Shown here piece after piece: positions 1-19,905 of a stretch of 32,000 bases of DNA (positions are counted from its first letter, which is position 1; every line of letters starts with the position of its first letter). Source of the stretch: Nitrosomonas europaea. GTDB lineage: Bacteria > Pseudomonadota > Gammaproteobacteria > Burkholderiales > Nitrosomonadaceae. Location of the stretch: NCBI RefSeq assembly GCF_900167395.1, contig NZ_FUWK01000004.1, forward strand, positions 103,435 through 135,434, in the 5' to 3' direction. Made by a program: the position numbers and the translations under genes. The notes under the pieces were generated by a model. That model ran no database searches. It was given only the letters and a program-made list of their open reading frames with translations, and was not told where the DNA came from.

Positions 1-1364
<1,364 letters not shown>

Positions 1365-1381
1365 GGAAAAGGAGGTGTTCG

Positions 1382-1747
1382 ATGAACGCCTACACGGTGT
1401 CCCGACTGGCTGACGATGCCGGCGTGAGTGTGCATGTCGTGCGCGACTACATCGTGCGTGGATTGTTGCGGCCGGTCGCATGCACCACGGGCGGCTACGG
1501 CCTGTTCGACGCGGCAGCCTTGCAACGCCTGTGCTTCGTGCGGGCCGCCTTTGACGCGGGCATCGGCCTGGGCGCGCTGGCGCGGCTGTGTCGGGCACTG
1601 GATGCTGCGGACGGCGACGGCGCGGCTGCGCAGCTTGCCGTGCTGCATCAACTCGTAGAACGGCGGCGCGAGGCCCTGGCCAGCCTCGAAATGCAGTTGG
1701 CCGCCATGCCAATCGAGTCGGCACGGCAAACGGAGAGTTTGCCATGA
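1382..1747 (+). CDS. merD: MerD, MerR-family co-regulator of the mer operon
   Basis: The protein starts [31 protein letters not shown], which is the MerD HTH. An AAGGAGG RBS lies upstream of the ATG at 1382. The position after merA is as expected. The ORF-track start at 1361 is an upstream alternative. Confidence 0.9.
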
Positions 1748-1980
1748 ACAGCCCCGAGCGCTTGCCAGCCGAGACGCGCAAGCCGGTCACCGGCTACCTG
1801 TGGGGCGCGCTGGCCGTGCTGACCTGCCCCTGCCATCTGCCGATTCTCGCCGCTGTGCTGGCCGGTACGACCGCCGGCGCTTTCATTGGGGAGCATTGGG
1901 GTGTTGCTGCCCTCGCGCTGACCGGGTTATTTGTCCTGTCCGTGGCGCGGCTGCTTCGAGCGTTCAAGGGAAGATCATGA
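1744..1980 (+). CDS. merE: MerE, small membrane mercury transporter
   Basis: The 78-aa product [35 protein letters not shown] carries the CPC motif and two hydrophobic helices. Its ATG overlaps the merD stop (ATGA). Confidence 0.85.
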
Positions 1981-2963
1981 CCGCTTCCCGACCGGTTGTA
2001 TGGACGGCGACACAATTGGCGCAGGCGGTTGTGCTCGGACAGCTTGAGCTGCATTACCAGCCGATTGTCGATCTGCGCAGTGACCAGATTGCCGGCGCGG
2101 AAGCACTGTTACGCTGGCGGCACCCGAGTCTCGGCTTGTTACCGCCGGGCCAGTTCCTACCCGTGGCGGAATCGTCCGGCCTGATGCCGGAGATCGGTGC
2201 ATGGGTGCTGCGCGAAGCCTGCCAGCAGATGCACGAGTGGCTACCGGTGCAATGGCGGCCGTTCCGCCTGGCCGTCAATGTATCCGCACGCCAGGTCGGG
2301 CCAGGTTTCGATGACCAGGTGCAACAGGCATTGGCGGCGGCAGGCTTGCTCGCCGAGTATCTGGAAATCGAGCTGACCGAATCGGCCGCCTTCGGCGATC
2401 CGGCAATTTTTCCTCTCCTGGATGCGTTGCGCGCCATCGGCGTGCGCTTCGCTGCCGACGATTTCGGGACGGGCTATTCCTGCCTGCAACACCTGAAATG
2501 CTGCCCGATCACCACGCTCAAGATCGACCAATCGTTCGTCGCGGGAATCGTGGATGACACACGCGACCAGACCATCGTCCGGGCGGTGATCCAACTCGCG
2601 CACGGCCTTGGCATGGAAGTGGTAGCCGAGGGAGTGGAAACGCCGGCCAGTCTCACGCAGTTGCGGCTAGCGGACTGCGACGCAGTGCAGGGCTTCCTGT
2701 TCGCCAAGCCGATGCCGGCGGCGGCATTCGCCGCCTTCGTTAAGCGATGGAGGGGTGTCACCATGAACGTCAACGAACCGACCACCAGTTGTTGCGTGTG
2801 CTGCAAGGAAATTCCGCTCGATGCTGCCTTCACCCCGGAAGGCTCGGAATACGTCGAACACTTTTGTGGACTCGATTGTTATGAACGTTTTCAGGCCCGA
2901 GCTAAAGCCGTAGCCGAACCAGTTACTACACCTGCCGCTGGCGGCCCAACGCCGTCAGGTTGA
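1977..2963 (+). CDS. urf2: Urf2, an EAL-domain protein with a Cys-rich TnpM-like C-terminus, uninterrupted
   Basis: EAL-domain motifs present: [40 protein letters not shown]. The C-terminal CCVCC...HFCGLDC segment matches the part known as TnpM in Tn21. The ATG overlaps the merE stop. Confidence 0.85.
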
Positions 2964-3092
2964 AGCATACCCTATCCTGATGTCAGGAGAAGCCACCCAG
3001 CAACGTCAGAATAGAGCCAATTTTTGTATTTCTTGACACCTGCGGCGAAAGGTCATAAATTTCTTCCTGACACTTTCGTGTTTAGAGGCACC
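2950..3092. promoter_or_regulatory. res resolution site region and tnpR promoter region
   Basis: This is the non-coding gap between urf2 and tnpR, where Tn21-group res lies. It holds several GTCAG/CTGAC-type half-sites: 2953-2959, 2981-2987, 3004-3010, 3033-3039 and 3067-3073. Exact subsite borders were not determined. Confidence 0.55.
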
Positions 3093-3653
3093 ATGCAGGG
3101 TCAACGCATCGGCTATGTCCGGGTCAGCAGCTTCGACCAGAACCCGGAACGGCAACTGGAGCATGTCGAAGTCGGCAGGGTATTCACCGACAAGGCGTCG
3201 GGAAAAGACACCCAGCGGCCTGAACTCGATTCGTTGCTGGCCTTCGTGCGCGAAGGCGACACGGTGGTGGTGCACAGCATGGATCGCCTGGCGCGCAACC
3301 TCGATGATTTGCGCCGCCTGGTACAAAAGCTGACCAAACGCGGCGTGCGCATCGAGTTCGTCAAGGAGAGTTTGACCTTCACCGGCGAGGATTCGCCGAT
3401 GGCGAACCTGATGCTGTCGGTGATGGGTGCGTTCGCCGAATTCGAGCGGGCCTTGATCCGCGAGCGGCAGCGCGAAGGCATCGCGCTCGCCAAGCAGCGC
3501 GGAGTCTACCGGGGCCGTAAGAAAGCACTGTCGCCCGAACAGGTCGCCGAACTGCGGCAGCGTGCCGCAGCCGGCGAACAGAAAGCGAAGCTGGCACGTG
3601 AATTCGGTGTCAGCCGGGAGACCCTGTATCAATACTTGAGATTGGATCAATAG
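3093..3653 (+). CDS. tnpR: Serine resolvase TnpR
   Basis: The 186-aa product starts [21 protein letters not shown], which includes the catalytic Ser motif, and has a C-terminal HTH. The ORF-track start at 3024 is an upstream extension. Confidence 0.95.
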
Positions 3654-3655
3654 CG

Positions 3656-6625
3656 ATGCCTCGTCGTTCCATACTGTCCGCCGCCGAGCGGGAAAGCCTG
3701 CTGGCGTTGCCGGACACCAAGGACGACCTGATTCGACATTACACGTTCAGCGATACTGACCTTGCCATCATCCGGCAGCGGCGCGGGCCTGCCAACCGGC
3801 TGGGCTTCGCCGTGCAGCTTTGCTACCTGCGCTTTCCCGGCATTATCCTTGGCGTCGATCAGCCGCCGTTCCCGCCCTTACTGAAACTGGTCGCCAACCA
3901 ACTCAAGGTCGGCATCGAAAGCTGGGACGACTACGGGCAGCGAGAGCAGACCCGGCGCGAGCACCTGGTCGAGCTGCAAAACGCGTTCGGCTTCCAGCCC
4001 TTCACGATGAGCCACTATCGGCAGGCTGTGCATACGCTGACTGAGCGAGCCATGCAGACCGACAAGGGCATCGTGCTGGCCGATGCCTTGATCGAACATT
4101 TGCGGCGACAGTCCATCATTCTGCCCGCGCTCAATGCCATCGAGCGCGCCAGCTCCGAGGCCATCACCCGCGCCAACCGACGAATCTACGAAGCCCTGTC
4201 CGAGCCGTTGTCGAACGGGCACCGGCATGGCCTCGACGATCTTCTAAAACGCCGCGACAACAGCAAGACGACTTGGCTGGCCTGGCTGCGGCAGTCGCCC
4301 GCCAAGCCCAATTCTCGGCACATGCTCGAACACATCGAGCGTCTCAAAGCCTGGCAGGCGCTCGACCTGCCGCCCGGCATCGAGCGGCTGGTTCACCAGA
4401 ATCGGTTGCTCAAGATCGCCCGCGAGGGCGGCCAGATGACGCCCGCCGACCTGGCCAAGTTCGAGCCGCAACGGCGCTACGCCACCCTGGTGGCGCTGGC
4501 CATCGAAGGCATGGCCACCGTCACTGACGAAATCATCGACCTGCACGACCGTATCCTCGGGAAGCTGTTCAACGCAGCCAAAAACAAGCATCAGCAGCAG
4601 TTCCAGGCGTCCGGCAAAGCCATCAACGCCAAGGTGCGCCTGTACGGCCGCATCGGCCAGGTGCTGATCGACGCCAAGCAATCGGGCGGCGACCCGTTCG
4701 CCGCCATCGAGGCCGTCATGTCCTGGGACGCCTTCGCCGAAAGCGTCACCGAGGCGCAAAAGCTCGCGCAGCCCGATGACTTCGATTTCCTGCACCGTAT
4801 CGGCGAGAGCTACGCCACCTTGCGCCGCTACGCGCCGGAATTTTTGGATGTGCTCAAGCTGCGGGCAGCGCCCGCCGCCAAGGACGTGCTCGATGCCATC
4901 GAGGTGCTGCGCGGCATGAACACCGACAACGCCCGCAAGGTGCCCGCTGATGCTCCGACCGATTTCATCAAGCCGCGCTGGCAGAAGTTGGTGATGACCG
5001 ACGCCGGCATCGACCGGCGCTACTACGAGCTGTGCGCACTGTCGGAACTCAAGAACTCGCTGCGCTCGGGCGACATCTGGGTGCAGGGATCACGCCAGTT
5101 CAAGGACTTCGAGGACTACCTGGTGCCGCCCGCGAAGTTCGCCAGCCTCAAGCAGTCCAGCGAACTGCCGCTGGCCGTGGCCACCGACTGTGACCAGTAC
5201 CTAGACGACCGGCTAACGCTGCTGGAGGCGCAACTTGCCACGGTCAATCGCATGGCAGCGGCGAACGACCTGCCGGATGCGATCATCACCGAGTCGGGCC
5301 TGAAGATTATGCCGCTGGATGCAGCCGTGCCCGAGACTGCGCAGGCGCTGATCGACCAGACCGCGATGATCCTGCCACACGTCAAGATCACCGAACTGCT
5401 GCTGGAGGTAGATGAATGGACGGGCTTCACTCGTCACTTCGCGCACCTGAAATCGGGCGATCTGGCCAAGGATAAGAACCTGCTGCTGACGACGATCCTG
5501 GCCGACGCGATTAACCTCGGCCTGACCAAGATGGCCGAATCCTGCCCCGGCACGACCTACGCCAAGCTGGCTTGGCTACAAGCCTGGCATATCCGCGACG
5601 AAACCTACTCGACGGCGCTGGCCGAGCTGGTCAATGCACAGTTTCGGCACCCGTTCGCCGAGCACTGGGGCGATGGCACCACGTCATCGTCGGACGGCCA
5701 GAACTTCCGCACTGGCAGCAAGGCCGAGAGTACGGGCCACATCAACCCGAAATACGGCAGCAGCCCAGGGCGGACGTTCTACACCTACATCTCCGACCAG
5801 TACGCGCCGTTCCACACTAAGGTCGTGAACGTCGGCGTGCGCGACTCGACCTACGTGCTCGATGGCCTGCTGTACCACGAGTCCGACCTGCGCATCGAGG
5901 AGCACTACACCGACACGGCAGGCTTCACCGATCATGTCTTCGCCTTAATGCACCTGCTGGGCTTCCGCTTTGCGCCGCGCATCCGCGACCTGGGTGATAC
6001 CAAGCTGTTCGTCCCAAAGGGTGAAGCCAGTTACGACGCGCTCAAACCGATGATTAGCAGCGACAAGCTGAACATCAAGGCGATTCGTGCCCACTGGGAC
6101 GAAATCCTGCGGCTGGCCACCTCAATCAAGCAGGGTACGGTGACAGCCTCGCTGATGCTCAGGAAGCTCGGCAGTTACCCACGTCAGAACGGCCTGGCCG
6201 TGGCCCTGCGCGAGTTGGGCCGCATCGAGCGCACGCTGTTCATTCTGGACTGGCTGCAAAGCGTGGAACTGCGCCGACGTGTCCACGCCGGACTCAATAA
6301 GGGCGAAGCGCGCAATGCGCTGGCCCGCGCCGTGTTTTTCAACCGGCTGGGTGAAATCCGCGACCGCAGTTTCGAGCAGCAGCGCTACCGGGCCAGCGGC
6401 CTCAACCTGGTGACAGCGGCTGTCGTGCTGTGGAACACGGTCTATCTGGAACGGGCGGCGCATGCGCTACGTGGCAACGGTCATGCCGTCGATGACGCGC
6501 TGTTGCAGTACCTGTCACCGCTGGGCTGGGAGCACATCAACCTGACCGGTGATTACCTGTGGCGCAGCAGCGCCAAGATCGGAGAGGGCAAGTTCAGGCC
6601 GCTACGACCGCTACAACCGGCTTAG
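3656..6625 (+). CDS. tnpA: Tn3-family transposase TnpA (Tn21 subgroup)
   Basis: The 989-aa product starts [31 protein letters not shown]. It has a DUF4158-type N-terminus and a DDE Tn3 core. The TAG stop lies inside the terminal IR, as in Tn21. Confidence 0.97.
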
Positions 6626-6658
6626 CGTGCTTTATTTTCCGTTTTCTGAGATGACCCC
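6621..6658 (-). repeat. 38-bp terminal inverted repeat (tnpA-proximal IR) of the Tn21-group transposon
   Basis: The reverse complement reads GGGGTCATCTCAGAAAACGGAAAATAAAGCACGCTAAG. This has the GGGG...ACGCTAAG architecture of Tn21-group IRs as I recall them. Confidence 0.9.
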
Positions 6659-8664
6659 TTAATGAGCTGGAATTTGTCCGCGGCAGTGCGGAAGCTGAAC
6701 TCGGCACGGCGAGCTTCGACCCGGTTGTGCATGTCCAGCAGGCCGATGATGTTTTCTTCATCTAAGCTGTTTAGACTGGCGTAGTAGTGACGAAAGTAGG
6801 CTTCGAAACGCTCACGCGTGAGTGGATCGCCTTCGGTCAGCCGCATGATTTCCTGCCCACTCTGTTGAGCTTTGCGCAGTAGTCCAGGGACAGCTGGCTT
6901 GGGCGGCACGAACACGACAACCTTGCCCATACCCGGCAGCATACCTTCGCGGTTACAACGCCCGGCAGCCTGCGCCACGGCATCCAGTCCAGCCAGTGCA
7001 CGATAAACCACTGGAAAATCTATATCTACTCCGGCTTCTACCAGCTGAGTACTGATAACACGAGTGGGGATGCCATCTTTCAAACGTTGTTTGATGTCCG
7101 CGATTACCTCACTGCGATGCTGGCCGCACATCAGGGCGGAAAGATGGATGGTGTCCCTGGGCATCAACGCATGCAGCGCGCGGCAATCAGTACGGGAATT
7201 CACTATGCACAACACGGAATCATATTGCTGCAATTCTTCAGCAATGGATTCCCAAGTACGAGGTGCGTTGAAATCCCGTGGCAGTTCGGCTTCGACACGT
7301 TTCAAATCGGCATACAACCCATCCGGGTCGTCCATCAGCTCTTGCACACCCCTGAGACCGGAAAACTTAGGGCGCGGCGAGAAGGCGGGTTGCGTCGCGG
7401 TAGAAAGTACGAAACTCACTTTATAGTTTTGCGACAAATCTTGCATGACATGCAGGATAGGGGCGAGGAACTCCGGCGGCAGCAGTTGCGCTTCGTCCAG
7501 AACGACTACGCTGTTCACGATGTTGTGCAGCTTGCGGCAGCGGCTGGTACGGGCAGCAAACAGTGATTCGAAGAACTGTACGTTGGTGGTGACGATGATG
7601 GGGGCATCCCAGTTTTCCGTGGCGAGCCGCGAGCGTGAATCTTCCTTGTCGGGATCGAGATTGCTGTGGTGTTCAATGACATTTTCATCCCCGAAAATCT
7701 TGCGGAAAATTTCCGCCGTCTGTTCGAGGATGCTGGTGTAGGGGATGACATAAATCACGCGCTGTTTGCCATGATGCATGGCGTGATTCAGTGCAAAAGC
7801 CGTGCTGGAAAGGGTTTTGCCGCCACCGGTGGGCACGGTGAGCGAGAACAGGCCGGGCGGCAACGTGGCTTTCTCACAGCATTGGCGTAGCACTTCAGTA
7901 CGGATACGGTTGACCGGAGAATCTGTTGCATTTGCTGTTTTGTCATTCATGTACTGGTCGAATGCGGACAGCAATTCATTCAACGCCGGATAACCCGCGC
8001 GCAAATCTTTCCTGCGCTCGTCCATAAAGGCTTCCGTATCCAGAAAATCAGCATCCACCAGACAGGAAAACAACATCCTGATCCAGAGCGCGAACGAACC
8101 ATCTTGCGGTGGAGATGAAGTGGGACATGGTTGGTTGAACAGTCCGGTTGTCGGTGCATTCTGCAACGCTTCTTGCCGATAGCCTTTTTGCTTACCATCT
8201 TCTATCCGCTGAAACAATGAAGCGGGTTCGCCATTCCAGTCTGGCAACCCAGCGTGATGCCCGGCAATCAGATAGGCGATGATGCGTCCCGGCGGGCCCA
8301 GTTCTTCAATGGCATGGATGGCGCCTGCAGTGGAATGATCCACCCGACCAGGCGCACCTTCGATGTGTGCTTCGGCATCGTAGCCGCTGACGGACTTGAT
8401 ATATTTCTGGAATTTCTCGCGGAATTTGCCGATGTCGTGCCACAATCCGGACAAGCGTGCCCAGTCCTGACTATTAAAAACAGACGCAAATTCAGCCGCC
8501 AATACAGCAACAGCGAGCAAATGCTCTTCCAGAAAATGCTCGATCCATCTCCCATTCGGCAGCTGCCGCACATGCGCCAGATAAGTGGTATTGTTTTCAG
8601 CATTCACTTTCTCAGATCTCCGGGGTTGTTTCCTAGAAACAAGCTTTCCGATATTTTGCCGCAC
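6622..8664 (-). CDS. cas3: CRISPR-associated HD nuclease/helicase Cas3, 3'-truncated by the transposon and probably non-functional (pseudogene-like)
   Basis: HD-domain motifs: [25 protein letters not shown]. Helicase motifs: [40 protein letters not shown]. The last 11 codons plus the stop ([10 protein letters not shown]) are encoded by the IR. The native part spans 6659 to about 8607 (GTG with a GGAGA RBS) or 8664 (GTG). Confidence 0.85.
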
Positions 8665-8828
8665 CCGCTACCCAACCTGATCAGGAAATAAGAGGAGAAT
8701 TACTGGCTTTCTATGATGAATAGCTTTTTTGAATGTGGCCAGCTGGTGGAAACCGAAGCAAAACTCATTGCTTCGTCAGTTGCATTCTGCTGCAATCCGG
8801 TATTTCAATGGGAAGCAACGTTATTCGG

Positions 8829-11800
8829 TCACTCCCGCACGCTTTCCCACAGTTTTTGCAGACGTTTCACTGAAACAGGCGCCGGGGTTTTCAGTTCCTG
8901 GCTGAACAGGGAAATGCGCAATTCCTCGATCTGCCAGCGGAATATTTCCATATTCGGATCTATTACTCCGGCCTGGCGGTGCTTGTTCAGGCGCTGAATG
9001 TACTGATTCCACAATGTACTGATGATTTCTGTCTGTTCCTGATCACGTGCCGGATTCTTGTTGTACTTATCGAGGCGCAGGATCATGCCTTTGAGATAAC
9101 GGGGAAGGTGTTGCAGATATTGCCAGCGGGTCGTACTTAGAAATCCCGGATAAATCAGGTGGTGGAGTTGCTCCTCCATATCCTTTTTCAGGAAAACGGC
9201 TGATTTGTCCAGAACGGATAGTCGTTTTTTCAGTTCCTGGCAGGGTTGGGCGATGGTATGGATCAGCCCGGCTATCTCCTGTGAAACGGATCCCAGGCGT
9301 GTTCGGGCACGTGACGTCTGTGAATTGAATTCATCCTCGTTACGCGGTAAGGGATCATCACCGATCAGCGCCAGATCGATGATGGCCGAACGAATATCTT
9401 CCTTCAGTCTGTCCATTTCGATCAGGCTGCTCATGAGCAGAATCGCTTGTCGATCGACCGGCAGATTTTTCTCCAGTTGTTTGATCCGGTCCTTGAGTGC
9501 CAGACACAATAAACGCAGCACCCCTCCACGCATACTGCGCTGCGCGCCTTCCTGCGTATCAAATATACGAACGGCAACGCTTTGTTCCTGATCAACCAGC
9601 GCCGGATAACCGGTCAGCAACTTGCCGGCTCGGCTGAAACGGGTTTCCACTGGTAATTCTCCGAAATCCCATCGGGTAATGTCATCACGTTCAATGGAAT
9701 CAGGCTCTGCGCCGGCGCCACGTGCAAACAACTGCTGTGCTGTCTGACCAAATTGTGCCTTCAGCTCGATCAGATCATGCCCCATGCCCAGCGTCATCCC
9801 GGCATCATCGATCACTTTCACATTCATCTGCAAATGTACCGGCAGCAACCTGCTATCCCAGGTATCCAGCGGTACTTTGATTCCAGTTTCGCTGCGGATG
9901 AATGCAGTGAGAGACTCAGCAAGCAACATGGCCTGATCCGGGCAACTATCCAGCCATTCCAGAAACCGGGTAACGAATTGCGGTACCGGAATAGCGTGAC
10001 GGCGCACCTGCTTGGGCAGCATTTTCACGTACCAGCCGATCTTTTCCCGAATGAGCCCCGGCACCAGCCGGTCGAAGTGAAACGGCATGATCTGATTGAG
10101 CAGCGGTAGCGGTACCGTAACGGTCACCCCATCCAGTGGATGGCCAGGATCGAAACGGTAACTCAGGGGCAATACGTGGCCGGCTGCTGTCAGGGTCTCG
10201 GGAAACTGTTCGGCAGCCGTTCCGTCTACTGCCTGACGTATCAATACTTCCCGCGTCAGATACAGGAGCTCGGGTTCAGTCTGTTCCGCCTGCTTACGCC
10301 ATTTTTCAAACGCAGTGCCGCTATAGATACCCGCTGGAATACGTGCAGCATAGAATTCGAATATCTGCTGCTCATCGACCAGAATATCCTGCCGCCGCAC
10401 TTTGCTTTCCAGCTCGCGGATTTCATCAATCAGTTGCTGGTTGTGCTGCAGGAAAGGTGCAGTGCTTTCATACTCCCCTGCCACCAGCGCCTGACGTATG
10501 AAAATTTCGCGTGCATGTGCCGGGTCGATCGGGCCATAGGCAATGCGCCGTTTGGGGACGATGGTCAGGCCATACAAAGTGATCCGCTCAAACGCCATCG
10601 CCTGCGCACGTTGCTTTTCCCAGTGCGGATCAAAATAGTGTCTTTTGCACAATTTACCAGCGATTCTTTCCAGCCAGGCCGGGTCGATTGCTGCCGCACA
10701 ACGAGCATAAAGTTTGGTAGTTTCCGCCAGTTCAGCTGCCACCACCCATTTCGGTTGTTTTTTTCTCAGGGATGAACCAGGAAAAATCGAGAATTTGATG
10801 GCACGTGCCCCCTCATAAACCCCTTTCTCATCCGATTTGAAACCGATATTGCCTAGCAATCCGGATAACAGTGCCCGATGGATTTCATCATAGCCGGCAG
10901 AAACCTGATTGGGGCGCAACCCCATCTCACTGATCAGTATATGCAACTGGCCGTGGATCTCGCGCCACTCGCGCATTCTGCGATGGGAAATGAAATTTTT
11001 CTGGCATTGTTCGATCAGTTTTTTATTGGATTTTTTGTGTTTGAGCAGCTCATCATAGAAATCCCATAGTTTGAGATAGCCCATGAAGTCAGAGCGATCA
11101 TCACGGAACGGCTGGTGCGCCTGATCAGCCGCCTGCTGATGTTCGAACGGCCGATCACGCGGATCCTGCAGGCTGAGTGCAGCAGCGATGATCAGCACTT
11201 CGCTCAAACAATTTTCCTGTTTGGCCGCCATGATCATGCGGGCGATTCTCGGATCGGTTGGGAATCTTGCCAGTTGATGGCCGATTTGTGTCAGCCCCTT
11301 GCGCTCGTCAAGTGCGCCAAGCTCTGACAAAAGCTGATAACCATCCGCGATCATGCGCGGCGCAGGCGGCTGAATGAATGGAAATTGCTCGACATCCCCA
11401 ATCTTGAGCGATTTCATACGCAGAATGACAGCGGCCAGCGAGGAACGCAGAATCTCGGGATCGGTATATTCCGGGCGGGCATTGAAATCTTCTTCTGAAT
11501 ACAGCCTGAAACACACGCCGTTCATTACCCGTCCGCAACGCCCTGCGCGCTGGTTGGCCGATGCCTGGGAAATCTTCTCGACCAGAAGCTGCTCCACCTT
11601 GTTGCGGTAGCTGTAGCGGTTGATTCGCGCCAGCCCTGTATCGATCACATAACGGATACCGGGGACTGTAAGTGAGGTTTCGGCAACATTGGTTGCCAGC
11701 ACGATTCGCCGCTGCTGACCGGGAGCAAAAATACGCGCCTGTTCTGTATGAGATAACCGGGCAAACAGCGGCAGAATCTCTAAACCGGCCTTGCCACCCG

Positions 11801-12584
11801 GGCCGGAAAAAGCATATTTGCGCACTGTCTCGGCAGTTTCGCGTATTTCCCGCTCTCCAGGCAGAAATACCAGTGTGTCGCCCTCCCCCATGCGCATGGC
11901 TTCATCGATCGTGCTGAGAATGGCCCGGGGCAAATCGCGATCCTCTCCATCGATTGGATCATTGGGCCGGTAATGAATCTCTACCGGAAACAGCCTGCCG
12001 GATACCTCAATGATGGGAGCATCATTGAAATGAGAGGCAAACCGCTGAGCATCGATGGTAGCGGAGGTGATGATCAGCTTCAGATCCGGGCGGCGCGGCA
12101 GCAACTGCTTGAGATACCCGAGCAGGAAATCGATATTCAGACTGCGCTCGTGCGCCTCGTCGATGATAATGGTCTGATAGGCGCGCAACAATGGATCCTG
12201 CTGCGTTTCCGCCAGCAGGATGCCATCGGTCATCAGCTTGATGCGCGTATTGGGGTGAGTCTGATCAGAGAACCGTACTTTGTACCCAACCAGTTTTCCA
12301 AGCGGGCTGTTCAGTTCCGCGGCAATACGTGCGGCAACGGTTCTGGCGGCAATACGCCGGGGTTGGGTATGGCCGATCAGATGTCCGGTACCCTGTCTCC
12401 CGGCACCTTGCCCCAGCTCCAGGCAGATCTTCGGTAACTGCGTCGTTTTTCCGGAACCGGTCTCACCACAGATGATGATCGCTTGGTGTTGCTGGATCGC
12501 ATGCGCGATTTCTTCACGCCGTGCGACAACCGGCAGATCTTCCGGATAGGTAATACAGGCAGGTTGTTCGGGGAGATACGTCAA
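8829..12584 (-). CDS. hrpA: ATP-dependent DEAH-box RNA helicase HrpA
   Basis: The 1251-aa product has GETGSGKTTQLPK, DEAHERS, SATID and QRAGRCGR motifs, an HA2/OB region and a long HrpA-type C-terminal region. The apparent TTG start lies 6 nt after the upstream thioesterase stop. Confidence 0.93.
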   Translation of the reverse strand: MTYLPEQPACITYPEDLPVVARREEIAHAIQQHQAIIICGETGSGKTTQLPKICLELGQGAGRQGTGHLIGHTQPRRIAARTVAARIAAELNSPLGKLVGYKVRFSDQTHPNTRIKLMTDGILLAETQQDPLLRAYQTIIIDEAHERSLNIDFLLGYLKQLLPRRPDLKLIITSATIDAQRFASHFNDAPIIEVSGRLFPVEIHYRPNDPIDGEDRDLPRAILSTIDEAMRMGEGDTLVFLPGEREIRETAETVRKYAFSGPGGKAGLEILPLFARLSHTEQARIFAPGQQRRIVLATNVAETSLTVPGIRYVIDTGLARINRYSYRNKVEQLLVEKISQASANQRAGRCGRVMNGVCFRLYSEEDFNARPEYTDPEILRSSLAAVILRMKSLKIGDVEQFPFIQPPAPRMIADGYQLLSELGALDERKGLTQIGHQLARFPTDPRIARMIMAAKQENCLSEVLIIAAALSLQDPRDRPFEHQQAADQAHQPFRDDRSDFMGYLKLWDFYDELLKHKKSNKKLIEQCQKNFISHRRMREWREIHGQLHILISEMGLRPNQVSAGYDEIHRALLSGLLGNIGFKSDEKGVYEGARAIKFSIFPGSSLRKKQPKWVVAAELAETTKLYARCAAAIDPAWLERIAGKLCKRHYFDPHWEKQRAQAMAFERITLYGLTIVPKRRIAYGPIDPAHAREIFIRQALVAGEYESTAPFLQHNQQLIDEIRELESKVRRQDILVDEQQIFEFYAARIPAGIYSGTAFEKWRKQAEQTEPELLYLTREVLIRQAVDGTAAEQFPETLTAAGHVLPLSYRFDPGHPLDGVTVTVPLPLLNQIMPFHFDRLVPGLIREKIGWYVKMLPKQVRRHAIPVPQFVTRFLEWLDSCPDQAMLLAESLTAFIRSETGIKVPLDTWDSRLLPVHLQMNVKVIDDAGMTLGMGHDLIELKAQFGQTAQQLFARGAGAEPDSIERDDITRWDFGELPVETRFSRAGKLLTGYPALVDQEQSVAVRIFDTQEGAQRSMRGGVLRLLCLALKDRIKQLEKNLPVDRQAILLMSSLIEMDRLKEDIRSAIIDLALIGDDPLPRNEDEFNSQTSRARTRLGSVSQEIAGLIHTIAQPCQELKKRLSVLDKSAVFLKKDMEEQLHHLIYPGFLSTTRWQYLQHLPRYLKGMILRLDKYNKNPARDQEQTEIISTLWNQYIQRLNKHRQAGVIDPNMEIFRWQIEELRISLFSQELKTPAPVSVKRLQKLWESVRE

Positions 12585-12590
12585 CAGCGG

Positions 12591-13070
12591 TTACTTGCTT
12601 ACGATGACCTTTTCTTTCTGGGTGCTGAGCGTGCCCTGTTCGATGATGGCGACTGTCAGCCTGGAAACGGCGATACGCTTACCGGTTTCTTCTTCGGTAA
12701 TATCCGTCTGCCAGACCTGGGTGCGTCTGCCGACGTGCAGTGGCGTACATACTCCGATGACATTGCCTTGCGTTACTGCCCGGATATGGTTGGCATTGAT
12801 TTCGATACCAACAGCCCGATACTGCTCGGGATCGATCGTCATCCAGGCAGAGACGCTGCCCAGTGTTTCAGACAGCACGCAACTGGCTCCTCCGTGCAGG
12901 ATGCCAAAAGGCTGGGTGGTACGATGATCGACCGGCATGCTTGCCTTGAGAAAATCAGGGCCGACTTCCAGAAAGCGAATACCGATATATACACCCATAT
13001 TGGCATTGCGCAGCCCTTCCAGATAATCGAGAGTATAGTTTTTAAACCAGGTTGCTTGATTGGGATTCAT
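12591..13070 (-). CDS. Hotdog-fold acyl-CoA thioesterase (PaaI/YbdB/MenI-like)
   Basis: The 159-aa product has the PFGILHGGASCVLSETLGS motif typical of PaaI-type thioesterases. A GGAGA RBS precedes the ATG. Confidence 0.8.
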   Translation of the reverse strand: MNPNQATWFKNYTLDYLEGLRNANMGVYIGIRFLEVGPDFLKASMPVDHRTTQPFGILHGGASCVLSETLGSVSAWMTIDPEQYRAVGIEINANHIRAVTQGNVIGVCTPLHVGRRTQVWQTDITEEETGKRIAVSRLTVAIIEQGTLSTQKEKVIVSK

Positions 13071-13097
13071 ATTGGTCTCCGCGTACTTGACATATGC

Positions 13098-14276
13098 TCA
13101 GGAAAGCGCAGTGGAATGATCTGGAACCAGTATCGGGGTATTCTGCAAATTTCTTCGTTTTTCCACCGCTTCCGCCAGCTCGAACAGCACCTGCTGTGTC
13201 GTATCGAAATCGATACAGCCATCCGTGATGCTTTGCCCGTAAACCAGCTCTTCCCGCCGCTTACCTTCAACATTCTGCCTGCCGGCCACCAGGTGACTTT
13301 CAAGCATGATCCCGCTGATTGAGCAGTTTCCTTCCGCAATTTGCTGAGCCACATCGGCAGCCACTTCCGGCTGACGCCGGTAATCCTTGTGGCTGTTGGC
13401 GTGACTGCAATCGATCATCAGATAAGGAGGCAGCTTGGCTTTCCGCAGTGCTTCGACCGCAGAAGCAACACTCTCTGCATCGTAATTCGGTGATCTTCCG
13501 CCGCGCAGGATGATATGACAATCTTCATTTCCCCTGGTGGTGAAAGTAGCAACCCGGCCTTCTTTGGTGACTGACAGGAAATTATGCGGGTGGGATGCAG
13601 CACCAATCGCATCGATTGCGATATTCAGATTGCCGTAGGTACCATTCTTGAACCCCACTGGACACGAAACACCGGAGGCCAGTTCACGATGTCCCTGGCT
13701 TTCAGTCGTGCGTGCGCCGATGGCCGCCCAACTGATGAGGTCAGCCACATATTGCGGGCTGATCAGATCAAGAAATTCAGTTGCAGCCGGCATATTTATA
13801 TTACCCAGTTTCAGCAACAGGTCGCGGGCAAGCCGCAATCCCTTGTCAATGTTGAAACTGTTATCCAGGTCTGGGTCGTTGATCAGGCCTTTCCAGCCAA
13901 CTGTTGTGCGAGGTTTCTCGAAATAAACCCGCATGATGATATGTAACTGATCTTTCAGCTCCTGACGCAGATGACTCAGTCGGGAAGCATATTCCACTGC
14001 CGCATCCACATCATGAATCGAGCATGGGCCACATACCACCAGTAACCGGTCATCCTCTCCCCGCAAAATATCGTGGCACTCCTGTCTGGCAGTAACCACA
14101 GTTTCAGTCGCCTGTTCAGTCAGAGGATGATCATGAAGCAGTTTCACCGGCGTGATCAGCTCATCTCCTCTGATAATGCGCCGGTCGTCAGTTTTATGTT
14201 CCACAGATGATTCCTTGATGACTATTTCTTTTTGCACTTCCTTGCCACACTGGCAATACAGACTGCCCGACTTCAT
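13098..14276 (-). CDS. aroG: Class I (AroF/G/H-type) 3-deoxy-7-phosphoheptulonate (DAHP) synthase
   Basis: It aligns along its length to E. coli AroG as recalled (GPCSIHD, RVYFEKPRTTVGWKGLINDP, GARTTESQ.HRELASG, KNGT). The true start is more likely the GTG at 14204, which has an AAGGA RBS, than the ATG at 14276. Feedback specificity is unknown. Confidence 0.9.
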   Translation of the reverse strand: MKSGSLYCQCGKEVQKEIVIKESSVEHKTDDRRIIRGDELITPVKLLHDHPLTEQATETVVTARQECHDILRGEDDRLLVVCGPCSIHDVDAAVEYASRLSHLRQELKDQLHIIMRVYFEKPRTTVGWKGLINDPDLDNSFNIDKGLRLARDLLLKLGNINMPAATEFLDLISPQYVADLISWAAIGARTTESQGHRELASGVSCPVGFKNGTYGNLNIAIDAIGAASHPHNFLSVTKEGRVATFTTRGNEDCHIILRGGRSPNYDAESVASAVEALRKAKLPPYLMIDCSHANSHKDYRRQPEVAADVAQQIAEGNCSISGIMLESHLVAGRQNVEGKRREELVYGQSITDGCIDFDTTQQVLFELAEAVEKRRNLQNTPILVPDHSTALS

Positions 14277-14338
14277 GTTGTGTGACCCGGTTCTGTTTTT
14301 AGCGGCAGTATTTTACTGCGATGTTCCGGCAGCTGCCA

Positions 14339-15997
14339 TCATTCTTGCAATGAAGCCAGATGGCTGGCCACGTCTTCCTTGCTGAAACCAATGGCGCTTG
14401 CAATACGATCAGCATGGCTGATACGGGAAATCCCGGGTATCAGCCGGTGAGACGGTTTCTCAGAAACGAACTCGACCTGCAGATAGTTGCCTATGTTTTC
14501 CTGCTGCAAACGTTCACACAATTCATGGTTATGGGTCACCAGGATGGTAGTTGCACCCAGCTGATGAAATCCTTTCAGCACATATTCCGACAATGTCATT
14601 TTCTCTTCGAATGTGGTGCCTTCTGCCAGTTCATCAAGTACCACCAGCGAGCGAGGGGTGGAGTTGAAGAAAATTTCACGGGTTTGTTTCAATTCGTGTG
14701 CAAAACGTCCCATCCCTTCTTCCAATTGGCCGGGATCGGGTATCTGATAAAAAATATGCTCGGCAGGCACGGCTCGTGCCTGGACAGCAGGCACGTAGGC
14801 TCCAGCTTGTGCCAGTAACTGGATCTGGACGACCGTCTTGCAGTAGGCCGTCTTTCCGCCACTGTTCGGCCCTGTCACGATCAGCAGATGCTTGTCATTA
14901 TCCAGCACGATATCGTTGGATACATAATCCGGGCGAGTTCTCACCAGCAAGGGATTCCTGGCACCGGATACGACCAGCGTATGTCGTCCATCCATATCAA
15001 TCTCCGGCAGGACGGATTCCCCGGGAATCGAACGTGCATGGCGGTGTAACGCCAGCAACTCATCGATCATCCCCATGGCTTCAATGGTTCTGGCCAACTC
15101 CGGGCTTTGTCGGAACAGCCTCTGCAGCGGGTATATCACCGAATCCCGATCCGAAGCGCTGATGGCCTGCAGAATGATGGGAATGATCGGTACGACCAGA
15201 ATCAGCAGCCCGTAACCGACATAGCTGGCTACCAGTTCATTCAGCGTGTTCTGAAAGAAAAGCAGCAGGCCAGCCACGAAAGCCAGAAAAAAGCTGATAA
15301 ACGGCCACTTGAACATGGAAGGGCGAAAACGCTGAATAAGCAGATACCGTGGCTTTTCCTCCCGGGTCATGAATTTTCCTTGCGATACATAGATAGGCCC
15401 ATGCATCAGGGCATAAGTACGTGACCGGGCAAAATCCCGCAGAGTCTGTACCAGTGTCCGCAGGTAATCACTCTCAGGCATGGGTAATGCTTCCGCCTCT
15501 TCGACCAGATCGACGACGAAACCGGTCCCATCGATGAACTGACGATAACCATAGCCGCCGAATTCCAGCTTGTCTTTACCGGTTTTATCTCGGGGATCAT
15601 CCGTCGTCAGCCCTCCCGCAAATTCACCGTACAGCAGGTGATGCAGCGATGCCTCATCTATCGCTATCCGTTTGATGTATTGTTCGAGCACTTTCAACAG
15701 ATCCGGATTGGATTCCAGTTCACGCAGCGCTTCCTGTTTACTTTGCAGCAACGCGGCATCCGTCACGGGGCGGGCGAGCGAACGGTAGAGTATGGATTGG
15801 CCTGTCAGGGTTTGTGCCTGGTTGATCTCATCGAACAAAGCATCGACTTCCACGGCGGCAAAAGTCTTGGCGTCCAGCACGCCGTAATTATCCGCAGTCG
15901 GTCTGGTATCGCGTATTCCGGAAGGATTCTTGCCGGATGACAAAATGAAACTTTCGCGCCAGACAGAAGCCGCGGTATCTTGTGTTGTATCATTCAT
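14339..15997 (-). CDS. MutS-related ATPase (domain III/V only) with two predicted internal transmembrane helices and no mismatch-binding domain
   Basis: It has Walker A GPNSGGKT, Walker B LVVLDELAEGT and THNHEL, the MutS domain V signature. Hydrophobic segments are WPFISFFLAFVAGLLLFF and YVGYGLLILVVPIIPIILQAI. I chose the ATG at 15997 (MNDTTQ...). The 75-aa upstream extension to 16222 is Cys/His-rich and looks non-coding. Confidence 0.75.
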   Translation of the reverse strand: MNDTTQDTAASVWRESFILSSGKNPSGIRDTRPTADNYGVLDAKTFAAVEVDALFDEINQAQTLTGQSILYRSLARPVTDAALLQSKQEALRELESNPDLLKVLEQYIKRIAIDEASLHHLLYGEFAGGLTTDDPRDKTGKDKLEFGGYGYRQFIDGTGFVVDLVEEAEALPMPESDYLRTLVQTLRDFARSRTYALMHGPIYVSQGKFMTREEKPRYLLIQRFRPSMFKWPFISFFLAFVAGLLLFFQNTLNELVASYVGYGLLILVVPIIPIILQAISASDRDSVIYPLQRLFRQSPELARTIEAMGMIDELLALHRHARSIPGESVLPEIDMDGRHTLVVSGARNPLLVRTRPDYVSNDIVLDNDKHLLIVTGPNSGGKTAYCKTVVQIQLLAQAGAYVPAVQARAVPAEHIFYQIPDPGQLEEGMGRFAHELKQTREIFFNSTPRSLVVLDELAEGTTFEEKMTLSEYVLKGFHQLGATTILVTHNHELCERLQQENIGNYLQVEFVSEKPSHRLIPGISRISHADRIASAIGFSKEDVASHLASLQE

Positions 15998-16291
15998 GGT
16001 TCGGGTTGTAATGACATGCGTTGACTCAGTGTTTCCAACTTTAGCCGATTTTGCCACTTTATGCTGGATTGATGACAATAGAAACCATGATCGGGCTTTT
16101 TGGAATCTCTGATCGAGTCCTCCATGAGCCGCATGGCAGGCAAAATCGTGATGGTCACAAGAAGCGCGACGAAAGTCGCAGTTTTCTACGATGCAGAGGA
16201 GCACGACACAGCGTGCGGCCATGCGGGATTTAATCAGCGACTCCTTAATCCAATACAGGTAACAGATCTTTCAGATTGCAGCTTTACCGCG

Positions 16292-16855
16292 ATGCGTAAA
16301 TTATTTAAAAAATACCTGCCCTCCCATGAAAGCATCCGGCAAAACCGTTTTGTAAATTTTTTCGGCACGCTGCTGTATCATCACAACCTTTGGCATTTAC
16401 ACCGCCGCTCTGTTGCCGGAGGTGTGGCGGCAGGTCTGTTCGCCGGCCTGATTCCGGGCAGCAACCCGGTACAATTCTTTTTCGCCACCCTGTTTTCCGT
16501 GATATTCAAAGTCAATCTGCCCATCGCCGCTTTCGTGACGCTTTACTCCAACCCTTTTACTATCGTGCCACTTTATCTGGCGGCCTATACGCTGGGTGGC
16601 TGGGTGACGGGCGGTACGAGAAATTCAGGCAGTCTCCCCCCGCTGGAGCTAGGTCTGCTGGATAAAAATCTGTCGGAATGGATTCCCGTTCTGACGGATT
16701 ATCTGGTTACATTCGGGAAACCGCTGATAACCGGATTGTTTCTGCTCGCTTCTCTGCTATCCATCACCGGTTATTTCACAGTACGGATTCTCTGGCGCTA
16801 TTACGTCGTACATGCATGGCACAAACGGGCCAAACGCCACCACCCCGATAAATAA
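16292..16855 (+). CDS. DUF2062-family membrane protein
   Basis: MRKLFKKYLP...HRRSVAGGVAAGLFAGLIPG plus several hydrophobic helices match my recollection of DUF2062. The ORF-track start at 16100 is an upstream extension. Confidence 0.75.
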   Translation: MRKLFKKYLPSHESIRQNRFVNFFGTLLYHHNLWHLHRRSVAGGVAAGLFAGLIPGSNPVQFFFATLFSVIFKVNLPIAAFVTLYSNPFTIVPLYLAAYTLGGWVTGGTRNSGSLPPLELGLLDKNLSEWIPVLTDYLVTFGKPLITGLFLLASLLSITGYFTVRILWRYYVVHAWHKRAKRHHPDK

Positions 16856-16875
16856 TTTTTTGTTTTTTCACCCTC

Positions 16876-18030
16876 ATGCCCAAATCACGACGGCTACTTC
16901 GCATAGCAGGCATTGCACTGGTGATTGCTGCAACAGGCTCTACCACCTGGTATCTGACTCGAAGCGCCCCTCAGGAAGTCGAACTGGTCACCGTCAGTCG
17001 CGGTACCGTCGAAGCCACCGTGGTCAATACCCGCGCCGGTACCATCAAAGCATGCCGACGTGCCAAATTATCGCCGGCAGCCGGCGGCCAGGTCATCCAC
17101 CTGCAAATCAGGGAAGGCGATCGGGTCAAAGAAGGCCAGATTCTGCTCGAATTGTGGAATGCCGATTTGCAGGCACAGTACGATCTCTCCCGGCAGCAGC
17201 TTGCCACTGCTGAAAGCCGGCAGCGTGAAACCTGTATTCTGGCCGGGAATGCACAGCGTGAATCTGTTCGCACTCAGCAGCTGGTAGAAAAAGGATTCGT
17301 CAGCTCACAACGTGCCGATGAGGCTGATGCCACGGCCAAAGCTCAGCAGGCCGCCTGCACTGCCGCAGCAGCCGAAGTCAAACGGGCTCATGCACAGATT
17401 GCCGTCAGCCAGGCCAATCTCGAACGCACCCGGCTCATTGCACCCTTTTCCGGCGTCGTTGCGCAGATTACCGGGGAACTGGGTGAATACGTTACCCCTT
17501 CTCCTCCGGGAATTCCCACTCCTCCGGCAGTCGATCTGATCGATGATTCCTGTTTGTATGTGAGTGCCCCGATGGATGAAGTCGATGCTCCTAAAATCCG
17601 CATAGGACAAACTGCACGTATTACGCTGGATGCCCTACCCGACCAGGTTTTTGACGGAAAAATACGCCGGATTGCTCCCTATGTGACTGAAATCGAGAAA
17701 CAGGCACGCACGGTGGATGTGGAAGCAGAATTTGTCAATCCCACTCAGGCTGTTCTGCTGGTAGGCTATAGCGCTGATATCGAAGCCATCATCGATCAGC
17801 GTGAAAACGTGCTGCGTATTCCCACCCAGGTCATCCGTCAGGACAACAAAGTATGGGTGCTGGGCCAGGATGACACGCTCGAGGAACGCACTTTGAAAAC
17901 AGGGTTGGCCAATTGGGCCTATTCCGAAGTGCTCGAAGGACTGTCAGAAGGAGATCAGGTGCTGCTGTCCAGCGATAATGGAAAAATCACAGCCGGCACC
18001 CGCGTCATTCCCAAACCACCGCAGCCATGA
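16876..18030 (+). CDS. HlyD/MacA-family periplasmic adaptor of an ABC efflux system
   Basis: It has an N-terminal membrane anchor, a coiled-coil hairpin (LQAQYDL...AKAQQAA...AQIAVSQANLERT), and lipoyl and beta-barrel regions. Its stop overlaps the next start (ATGA). Confidence 0.9.
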   Translation: MPKSRRLLRIAGIALVIAATGSTTWYLTRSAPQEVELVTVSRGTVEATVVNTRAGTIKACRRAKLSPAAGGQVIHLQIREGDRVKEGQILLELWNADLQAQYDLSRQQLATAESRQRETCILAGNAQRESVRTQQLVEKGFVSSQRADEADATAKAQQAACTAAAAEVKRAHAQIAVSQANLERTRLIAPFSGVVAQITGELGEYVTPSPPGIPTPPAVDLIDDSCLYVSAPMDEVDAPKIRIGQTARITLDALPDQVFDGKIRRIAPYVTEIEKQARTVDVEAEFVNPTQAVLLVGYSADIEAIIDQRENVLRIPTQVIRQDNKVWVLGQDDTLEERTLKTGLANWAYSEVLEGLSEGDQVLLSSDNGKITAGTRVIPKPPQP

Positions 18031-19897: not shown

Positions 19898-19905
19898 ATT
19901 TTGCG

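Follow-up and report, generated by a model that had tools for sequence, protein, structure and literature searches.

How did a mercury-resistance transposon come to lie against a cas3 gene in Nitrosomonas europaea, and what did it leave of the CRISPR-Cas system to which that gene belongs? A sequence-only reading of the window, by which we mean the whole stretch of 32,000 nucleotides analysed, had taken the arrangement for an insertion inside cas3. In the ATCC 19718 lineage, an 8,639-bp transposon (merRTPCADE-urf2-tnpR-tnpA) stands where the intact type I-C operon has 4,683 bp of its own. The window is identical in N. europaea ATCC 19718 and in GCA_054182965.1, and it is 100% identical to positions 18607-1 of an extended locus (L001), which is reversed relative to it. 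The features of the window that bear on the question are the following.

1-6658, plus strand: right-hand part (6,658 of 8,639 bp) of a mercury transposon of the Tn21 subgroup, Tn3 family, opening in merA
1-1364, plus strand: 3' part of merA, mercuric reductase, cut by the window edge (NCBIfam NF010311, 944 bits, model positions 110-560)
1382-1747, plus strand: merD (NCBIfam NF033783 MerD, 246 bits; gene call at L001 16861-17226)
1744-1980, plus strand: merE (Pfam MerE; gene call at L001 16628-16864)
1977-2963, plus strand: urf2-type EAL/DUF3330 gene of Tn21-family elements (Pfam EAL, 1.3e-70; DUF3330, 5e-41)
3093-3653, plus strand: tnpR, serine resolvase, 186 aa (Pfam Resolvase and HTH_7)
3656-6625, plus strand: tnpA, Tn3-family DDE transposase, 989 aa (NCBIfam NF033527, 1311 bits with a cut-off of 500; Pfam DDE_Tnp_Tn3, 2e-158, and DUF4158)
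6621-6658, no strand: terminal inverted repeat (IR) at the tnpA end, 38 bp, CTTAGCGTGCTTTATTTTCCGTTTTCTGAGATGACCCC
6622-8607, minus strand: chimeric open reading frame of 661 aa, from translation, made of cas3 codons 1-650, 11 IR-encoded codons and TAA
6659-6663, no strand: TTAAT flank, not duplicated; the opposite flank is CTTTA in window orientation
6659-8607, minus strand: native type I-C cas3 remnant with HD nuclease, RecA1, RecA2 and linker, without the C-terminal 97 residues (identical at 100% of nucleotides with L006, an intact locus, as far as the junction)
8608-8828, no strand: cas3-hrpA intergenic region, presumed from its position to hold the cas operon promoter
8829-12584, minus strand: hrpA, chromosomal neighbour upstream of cas3 (NCBIfam TIGR01967, 1625 bits)

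The whole element spans L001 11950-20588 with an IR at each end, the two repeats matching at 37 of 38 bases (11950-11987 and 20551-20588). MerA, MerD and MerE are encoded in the window; to its left, in L001, lie the 5' end of merA (561 aa when complete, by gene call), merC, merP, merT, merR and the mer-end IR. A DDE transposase of about 990 aa, 38-bp IRs at both ends, a tnpR just upstream of and co-directional with tnpA, and a mer operon as passenger place the element in the Tn21 subgroup. It shares with the Tn21/Tn501 subgroup, represented by integron-free Tn21-type backbones with TnAs3-type annotation, the 38-bp IRs ending GGGG...CTAAG, the order merR/merTPCADE-urf2(EAL)-tnpR-tnpA, a transposase of the DDE Tn3 type together with a serine resolvase, the stops of tnpA and merR within the IRs, and a 5-bp duplication where a simple insertion is seen (L018). 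Unlike these relatives it is chromosomal, in Nitrosomonas, shows no target duplication at the present locus, and reaches nucleotide identities of only 85.6% (IncP-1 plasmids of uncultured bacteria) and 83.7% (TnAs3/Tn21-type) with the closest plasmid-borne elements of a plasmid collection. An identical IR bounds each end of the element in L014-L019, and a single copy with this TnpA is recorded in ATCC 19718.

At the tnpA end the sequence-only reading holds up well. It had placed the end of a 38-bp Tn21-type IR at 6658 with cas3 running into it, and had derived the last 11 codons and the TAA of the fusion from that IR; the IR is indeed read at 6621-6658, and translation gives the same 11 codons and stop, the third base of the K650 codon being IR-encoded as well. 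The GC content changes abruptly at the junction as described, falling to about 0.53 from the 0.63 or so of the transposon, and hrpA lies upstream of cas3, where it is also found in the intact-operon loci L004, L006 and L010. The CTTAG of the IR is not the palindrome it was said to be; the stop of tnpA (TAG, 6623-6625, plus strand) and that of the cas3 chimera (TAA, 6624-6622, minus strand) merely overlap. The exact 661-aa protein occurs also in ATCC 19718, in GCA_054182965.1 and in more than 20 metagenome contigs. A scan of the cas3-hrpA intergenic region for consensus promoters gave nothing above chance.

The same reading had proposed that cas3 is cut at the IR without its C-terminal domain, and comparison with full-length homologs and profile models bears this out. 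The truncated protein, in which Pfam and NCBIfam recognise the HD domain and the SF2 helicase, has as its best match the PADLOC model Cas3c of type I-C (E=1.3e-211) and covers positions 9-539 of 612, whereas the intact allele reaches from 9 to 603; positions 540-603 of the model are thus missing. Intact alleles are 747 aa long, and over the native 650 residues the intact allele P0003 shows 100% identity, so that 97 C-terminal residues are gone. Of the three parts of a Cas3, the HD domain and the helicase are present and the C-terminal domain is absent. The missing part includes the conserved motif LQRYT of that domain, which aligns to K779/Q781 of Neisseria lactamica Cas3 and is required for type I-C Cas3 function in experiments (PMC7049708, PMC11417383). 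In Bacillus halodurans, a type I-C Cas3 deprived of this domain supports no interference (PMC7049708). The engineered protein, residues 1-709 of 800, lost 91 aa, compared with 97 aa here, and in both the lost part includes the conserved K/R-x-Q-x-Y motif; the engineered mutant abolishes interference in vivo (PMC7049708). The natural truncation differs in its 11-residue IR-encoded tail.

Near-identical N. europaea contigs free of the transposon show the operon as it stood before, in the order hrpA-cas3(747 aa)-cas5c-cas8c-cas7c-cas4-cas1(344 aa)-cas2. Every cas gene of this intact locus has its best match in a type I-C model, and PADLOC identifies Cas8c (E=3.9e-193), Cas5c (E=5.9e-71) and Cas7c (E=2.2e-127) in L006 and L010. 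With its array the intact allele is a canonical cas3-cas5c-cas8c-cas7c-cas4-cas1-cas2 system resembling the type I-C (Dvulg) systems of N. lactamica (PDB 8ZNS, 8G9U) and B. halodurans, and its Cas3 aligns to that of N. lactamica with E=1.7e-168. Unlike these systems, the genome of the window retains cas3 residues 1-650, cas1 residues 156-344, cas2 and the array, and the signature gene cas8c is absent. On the cas3 side, L001 1-11951 equals L004/L006 1-11951 (100% identity to L006), and on the other side L001 20588-21666 equals L004 16632-17710 (100%). By this alignment the 4,683 bp replaced by the transposon comprise cas3 codons 651-747, all of cas5c, cas8c, cas7c and cas4, and cas1 codons 1-155, the tnpA-end IR abutting cas3 codon 650 and the mer-end IR abutting cas1 codon 156.

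Beyond the transposon the earlier reading had expected the remaining CRISPR components, and this proves correct for the 3' half of cas1, cas2 and the array but not for the Cascade genes. Next to the mer-end IR in L001 stands TAAAGACC..., whose in-frame translation gives Cas1 residues 156-344; cas2, a leader and the repeats come after it. The cas1 remnant spans positions 156-339 of the 340 of the Cas1c model, cas2 is intact and cas4 is absent, so that the adaptation module cas4-cas1-cas2 is incomplete. The genes cas5c, cas8c, cas7c and cas4 are absent between the cas3 and cas1 remnants in L001, L014, L015 and L017, and with them the type I-C Cascade (the signature cas8c, cas5c and cas7c) at the transposon-bearing locus. 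The array has nine identical 37-nt repeats (GTAGCGCCCGGTCACCAGACCGGGCGAGGATTGAAAC) and eight spacers of 34-36 nt, as in type I-C; the repeat terminates in ATTGAAAC, and repeats ending ATTGAAAC are typical of type I-C.

The sequence-only reading had predicted a target duplication at TTAAT (6659-6663). The flank at the opposite end of the element reads CTTTA, the two lie 4,683 bp apart in the intact locus, and no 5-bp duplication is present here. At L018 the same element, with 7 differences in 8,639 bp, occupies another site between perfect 5-bp copies (AACTG/AACTG), and it therefore normally makes such a duplication; its lack here concerns the history of this insertion and not the family of the element. 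Since the missing stretch begins and ends precisely, with single-base accuracy, at intact ends of the transposon, the deletion would have been made by the transposition machinery. Neither a TTAAT copy nor a cas3 remainder lies beyond the mer-end IR, a finding named beforehand as the sign of a transposon-associated deletion. We thus propose that transposon-mediated replacement or deletion very probably removed the 4,683 bp of operon DNA, and to this explanation as a whole, including the structure, the deletion by transposition machinery and the functional loss, we give a probability of about 0.88.

Granted such a deletion, a single insertion followed by an intramolecular route is slightly favoured. 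One copy would have entered the operon, at the cas3 site or at the cas1 site, and would then have undergone intramolecular replicative 'cis' transposition onto a second target 4.7 kb away; the intervening DNA would be excised as a circle, leaving one copy with one old and one new 5-bp flank. Tn3-family elements produce deletions next to themselves by intramolecular transposition in cis, one target duplication being lost in the process (PMC5142620). The Tn1331 derivatives of Klebsiella pneumoniae plasmids (PMC5142620) are a parallel: there, as here, the missing DNA starts right at an intact end of the transposon, the original target duplication has lost one of its copies, and the IR marks the exact point at which the adjoining gene breaks off. 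The present case differs in being chromosomal, in having cost a defence operon 4.7 kb, and in being pieced together from end products. An exact-match scan of JGI metagenome contigs for both junctions predicted of an intermediate allele, with the transposon and its duplication in an otherwise intact operon, returned 0 matches. Tn3-family target immunity should work against any further hit close to a resident copy, be it by an intramolecular or an intermolecular event, and counts against the favoured explanation.

The final structure would be equally expected from recombination between two directly repeated copies. Two insertions in the same orientation, one in cas3 and one in cas1, could have arisen within a single cell or in separate strains brought together by later recombination, after which TnpR/res or RecA-dependent recombination would delete the 4.7 kb together with one copy. 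This course, which we hold possible though distinctly less probable, predicts the single copy, the unlike 5-bp flanks and the precise IR junctions that are observed; the element encodes an apparently intact resolvase, and directly repeated res sites, the natural substrate of Tn3-family resolvases, speak in its favour. It requires, however, two independent hits in the same orientation within 4.7 kb, whereas the intramolecular route needs one insertion and one local event; neither single-insertion junction is found in the scanned JGI metagenome contigs, and no second copy is recorded in ATCC 19718.

It is very unlikely that the deletion came first, for instance as an escape from self-targeting, and that the transposon later entered the deletion joint. 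Spontaneous deletions are known in CRISPR-Cas loci, and the TAA next to both IRs (...ATTAA / TAAAG...) can be read as a microhomology joint, but insertion at a ready-made joint would give an identical 5-bp duplication, as the element makes at L018, and the flanks agree at no more than 3 bp, roughly the chance expectation for AT-rich targets. Furthermore, among the cas3 homologues listed there is no transposon-free contig with this deletion, and the alleles listed at close to 100% identity have, wherever the transposon is absent, a length of 747 aa. The simple insertion of the sequence-only reading, with a TTAAT duplication and with the 3' end of cas3, the Cascade genes and the array intact downstream, is compatible with the cas3-side junction taken alone and is refuted by the far side, where TAAAG and cas1 codon 156 rather than the cas3 3' end follow the mer-end IR and where three assemblies show no TTAAT, cas3 remainder, cas5c, cas8c, cas7c or cas4. 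A repeat-induced misjoin across the transposon, of the kind that does occur in a metagenome scaffold (L016, in which the cas1 flank leads to another right flank and an N-gap is present), has a negligible chance of explaining an arrangement on which the finished ATCC 19718 chromosome (AL954747.1), a second chromosome-level assembly (CM135170.1) and a 128-kb JGI metagenome contig, all independent, agree base for base over 22,970 bp, the single copy recorded in ATCC 19718 leaving no second one to misjoin with.

Under the transposon-mediated deletion that we prefer, interference, crRNA processing and adaptation would all be lost from this operon, as judged from its gene content and from published type I-C biology in other species. 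Without Cascade there would be no target recognition, without Cas5c no crRNA processing, and without Cas4 and with a Cas1 deprived of its N-terminal half no adaptation. What is left beside the tail-less cas3 and the half cas1 are relics, cas2 and the array of nine repeats and eight spacers. The event is recent; the flanks are 100% identical to those of an intact-operon strain and the relics show no further decay. We consider it very improbable that the removal of the interference and adaptation genes was selected rather than neutral, be it that it allowed the lineage to keep incoming DNA (the vector of the mercury element or other mobile DNA) or that the retained 661-aa HD-helicase with its IR tail, still under its own promoter, serves a purpose that needs no Cascade. 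Two observations are hints that the species has lost this system more than once: the same element is on the move between Nitrosomonas species that occur together, and in another N. europaea lineage cas8c carries a nonsense mutation of independent origin.

Insertion sequences and transposons are known to inactivate cas genes in nature, where a mobile element abolishes the CRISPR immunity of a lineage while the array persists. The present locus is alike in both respects and differs in being a transposon-bounded multi-gene deletion instead of a single-gene insertion, by an element that brings a selectable mercury-resistance operon. It is a new example of ordinary transposon-mediated gene loss, and the general understanding of transposons or CRISPR is unchanged by it. 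Its value lies in a clean natural before-and-after pair, with intact and deleted alleles and flanks of 100% identity, in which one delimited event has let a resistance transposon wipe out the effector and adaptation module of a CRISPR-Cas system. Database entries for a 661-aa 'Cas3' and a 183-208-aa 'Cas1' are to be read with caution, as transposon-truncated fragments whose reading frames are each partly IR. The annotation of N. europaea ATCC 19718, a model ammonia oxidiser, lists a short 'Cas3' and a short 'Cas1' beside cas2 and an array, without any Cascade; the finding accounts for this set, and it is relevant to how the defence repertoire, the spacers and the transformability of this strain are read.

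The junction between a Tn21-type transposon and cas3 is formed by the following features of the window:

3656-6625, left of the inverted repeat (IR): Tn3-family transposase, tnpA (NCBIfam NF033527, 1311 bits)
left of the IR, beside the transposase: serine resolvase, urf2-type EAL/DUF3330 gene, merE, merD and the 3' part of merA
6621-6658: Tn21-type tnpA-end IR, 38 bp, CTTAGCGTGCTTTATTTTCCGTTTTCTGAGATGACCCC
8607-6622, minus strand: cas3-fusion ORF, GTG start at 8607, TAA stop at 6624-6622
upstream of cas3: hrpA, identified by a profile match

The sequence-only reading had described a cas3 frame that stays open into the IR, and both the IR sequence and the translation of the ORF confirm it, the IR encoding the final 11 residues and the stop as well as the third base of codon K650. 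The shift in GC content at the junction (from about 0.63 to about 0.53) and the position of hrpA upstream of cas3 were likewise borne out. The CTTAG in the repeat is not the palindrome it was taken for; the TAG of tnpA (6623-6625) and the TAA of the cas3 fusion (complement of 6622-6624) merely overlap. By Pfam (HD, Cas3_HD, DEAD) and NCBIfam (cas3_HD, cas3_core) the fusion protein combines an HD domain with an SF2 helicase core, and its top profile is the PADLOC type I-C Cas3c model (E=1.3e-211), which is covered at positions 9-539 of 612 only. Elsewhere in the window, a MutS-related paralogue adjoins aroG (14339-16222, minus strand, 552-627 aa). Of the MutS domains it shows only the domain V ATPase, with a weak match to domain III; its scores fall far short of the cut-offs for MutS1 and MutS2, and PADLOC gave no match.

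More than 20 metagenome contigs encode the exact 661-aa fusion protein, as do the N. europaea chromosomes of ATCC 19718 (AL954747.1) and GCA_054182965.1 (CM135170.1). The CM135170.1 locus (L001) matches the window at 100% identity, and the ATCC 19718 locus is 100% identical over 22,970 bp to L015, a further locus with the transposon at this site. In L001, where cas3 reads as a plus-strand gene, the element occupies 11950-20588 (8,639 bp), in the gene order merR / merT-merP-merC-merA-merD-merE-urf2-tnpR-tnpA. Its nearest relatives are 85.6% identical, on IncP-1 plasmids from uncultured bacteria, followed by TnAs3/Tn21-type copies at 83.7%; the element is a genuine though diverged member of the Tn21 subgroup. 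Directly past the mer-end IR we read TAAAGACCTTGATCAGGTG..., whose in-frame translation, KDLDQVRGIEGDAAKTYF..., is the C-terminal half of Cas1. After this remnant (cas1') come an intact cas2, about 180 bp of leader sequence and a CRISPR array. Beyond this IR in L001 there is neither a second TTAAT nor a cas3 3' end, both of which had been expected there, and cas1' is found instead.

The merR gene is transcribed outward, with its TAG stop inside the mer-end IR (L001 20551-20605; L014, a further transposon-bearing locus, 3797-4423). In the calls of some gene finders (199-208 aa) the 'Cas1' ORF reaches back across the IR and into the 3' end of merR, so that public 'Cas1' and 'Cas3' entries of this genome contain IR-derived residues. 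Transcription from merR may run on into cas1'-cas2. Around the merR-cas1' junction and upstream of cas3, scans for consensus promoters and terminators gave results at or below the level expected from shuffled sequence.

The extent of the loss is given by intact alleles. A homologue search returned many Cas3 proteins of 747 aa, among them P0003, which is 100% identical to the fusion over its native 650 residues. The loci carrying P0003 (L004-L009) and those with a 99% identical allele (L010-L013) share the order hrpA-cas3(747)-cas5c(221)-cas8c(570)-cas7c(292)-cas4(209)-cas1(344)-cas2(96)-leader-repeat, with a type I-C model as the best match for every cas gene. Two blastn blocks relate them to the transposon-bearing locus: L001 1-11951 corresponds to L004/L006 1-11951 (0 mismatches over 4,727 bp against L006), and L001 20588-21666 to L004 16632-17710 at 100% identity. 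The transposon therefore replaces L004 11950-16632, 4,683 bp, with endpoints ambiguous by 1-2 bp through chance identity with the IR ends. Deleted are cas3 codons 651-747, the whole of cas5c, cas8c, cas7c and cas4, and cas1 codons 1-155. In the window orientation the flanks read CTTTA/IR(mer end)...IR(tnpA end)/TTAAT, and the 5-bp target duplication is absent (CTTTA vs TTAAT). Hence the simple insertion into cas3 proposed from the window, with an intact operon downstream, gives way to a 4.7-kb transposon-bounded replacement without target duplication; the transposon-associated deletion that the same reading had named as its refuting alternative is exactly what the far end of the element shows.

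In another N. europaea lineage (L004, L005; Logan SRR23982699 and SRR23982700) the cas3 of 747 aa is intact. In both loci a single C-to-T change (L004 13208; corresponding base L006 5984) creates a stop at cas8c codon 97 and splits the gene into ORFs of 96 and 425 aa, while L006 and L010 keep the intact 570-aa gene; this nonsense change would have knocked out the type I-C system a second time, independently. We also considered locus L022 as a sign of an older insertion and rejected it, its mismatch cluster starting 900 bp inside cas3 and resembling a strain-mixing assembly switch.

An identical TnpA occurs at a second site, in L018 (JGI 3300014930; element 4365-13003) and L019 (ENA ERZ926313), where the element differs at 7 of 8,639 bases. 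Its neighbours there are a multicopper-oxidase-type gene on one side and a LysR/pirin pair on the other, and a perfect AACTG/AACTG duplication flanks it. The element thus makes 5-bp duplications at simple insertions, which renders their absence at the cas locus meaningful. With genomes of the Nitrosomonas eutropha group the pirin gene shares 82-89% identity, and on this ground we assign the second-site copy to another Nitrosomonas species; this suggests that co-occurring Nitrosomonas species have recently exchanged the element. The empty form of the second site was sought among GTDB species representatives, with 0 matches. The multicopper-oxidase-type ORF to the left of the element (L018 3379-4401) also enters the IR and stops there, like the cas3 fusion. 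Of the seven differences between the copies, which lie at L015 7672-7706 and 9179, six are packed in 35 bp at the merA 3' end, a patch that looks like short recombination or gene conversion and not scattered mutation. One metagenome scaffold (L016, JGI 3300014713) joins the N. europaea cas2-cas1' flank, the transposon and the LysR/pirin flank of the second site, and its CRISPR array is interrupted by an N-gap. We set this scaffold aside as evidence of recombination between copies, given the gap and a sample that contains both copies; it may be a real recombinant and is most likely a chimera assembled over the shared 8.6-kb repeat.

At each end the deletion stops precisely at an intact IR terminus, which points to the transposition machinery and not to an unrelated deletion. 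In the route that we prefer, a single insertion of the element in the operon would be followed by cis-mode intramolecular replicative transposition, with a target at a distance of 4.7 kb; the DNA in between would leave as a circle, and the one remaining copy would have an old pentanucleotide on one side and a new one on the other. Such cis transposition is documented in the Tn3 family, where one copy of the duplication was lost and a neighbouring gene truncated (PMC5142620). The identical product would result if the element had inserted twice in direct orientation and the copies had then recombined, through res/TnpR or by homology; the preference for the cis route is one of parsimony, since it takes one intermolecular and one local event and a single copy is on record in ATCC 19718. 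A single insertion would have had as junctions either the mer-end IR, ATTAA and the cas3 remainder (...GAGACGACCCC/ATTAAGGAAGAAGG) or the cas1 5' part, TAAAG and the tnpA-end IR (...CTTATTCTAAAG/GGGGTCATCTCAG); exact-match scans of JGI metagenome contigs gave 0 matches to both. The present junctions are CATTAA/GGGGTCATC and GACGACCCC/TAAAGACC. A deletion preceding the insertion is unlikely, for the later insertion should have left a 5-bp duplication, whereas the flanks share TAA only. An assembly artefact is excluded by the agreement of three assemblies. We judge the event to be recent, since the relics are undecayed and the flanks identical to those of an intact-operon strain.

The orphan array lies outside the window (L015 2710-3323) and holds 9 identical repeats of 37 nt and 8 spacers of 34-36 nt. 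Searches with these spacers against plasmid and phage collections and all collected loci, the transposon included, gave no match, so targeting of the incoming element by the array is unsupported. Logan contigs of intact-operon strains show a single repeat only, followed by a NERD-domain gene, probably because the array collapsed in assembly.

The mer region of ATCC 19718 has been listed as a compositional genomic island (PMC3195076). Our literature search, with the 2003 genome paper outside it, found no description of the cas3/cas1 truncation. The inactivation of cas genes by mobile elements is a known phenomenon. As adjacent deletions by the Tn3 family are known too, the replacement is a well-resolved new example of known phenomena and not a new kind.

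The functional consequences follow from gene content and published work. The AlphaFold2 model of intact Cas3 (P0003, 23-sequence alignment) was poor (mean pLDDT 52; C-terminal third <50), and the C-terminal domain was therefore mapped by HMM coverage and HMMER alignment to PDB 8ZNS. The missing residues 651-747 include R-L-Q-R-Y-T (687-693), nearly invariant among 22 homologues and aligned to K779-L-Q781-R-Y-T of N. lactamica Cas3, with counterparts K743/Q745 in B. halodurans Cas3 (PMC11417383). In the latter protein, removal of the C-terminal domain (residues 1-709 of 800 retained) abolishes interference, as does each of K743A, Q745A and Y747A (PMC7049708). The Cascade genes for Cas5c, Cas8c and Cas7c are absent from the transposon-bearing locus, and crRNA processing would be lost along with Cas5c, the type I-C processing enzyme (PMC7049708). 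In the adaptation module Cas4 is gone and the Cas1 remnant covers Cas1c model positions 156-339 of 340 only. The earlier proposal that a transposon disables a CRISPR effector thus stands as to the truncation of cas3, though not as to a simple insertion; we infer that CRISPR immunity is disabled in these strains, in which the array and cas2 persist as relics.
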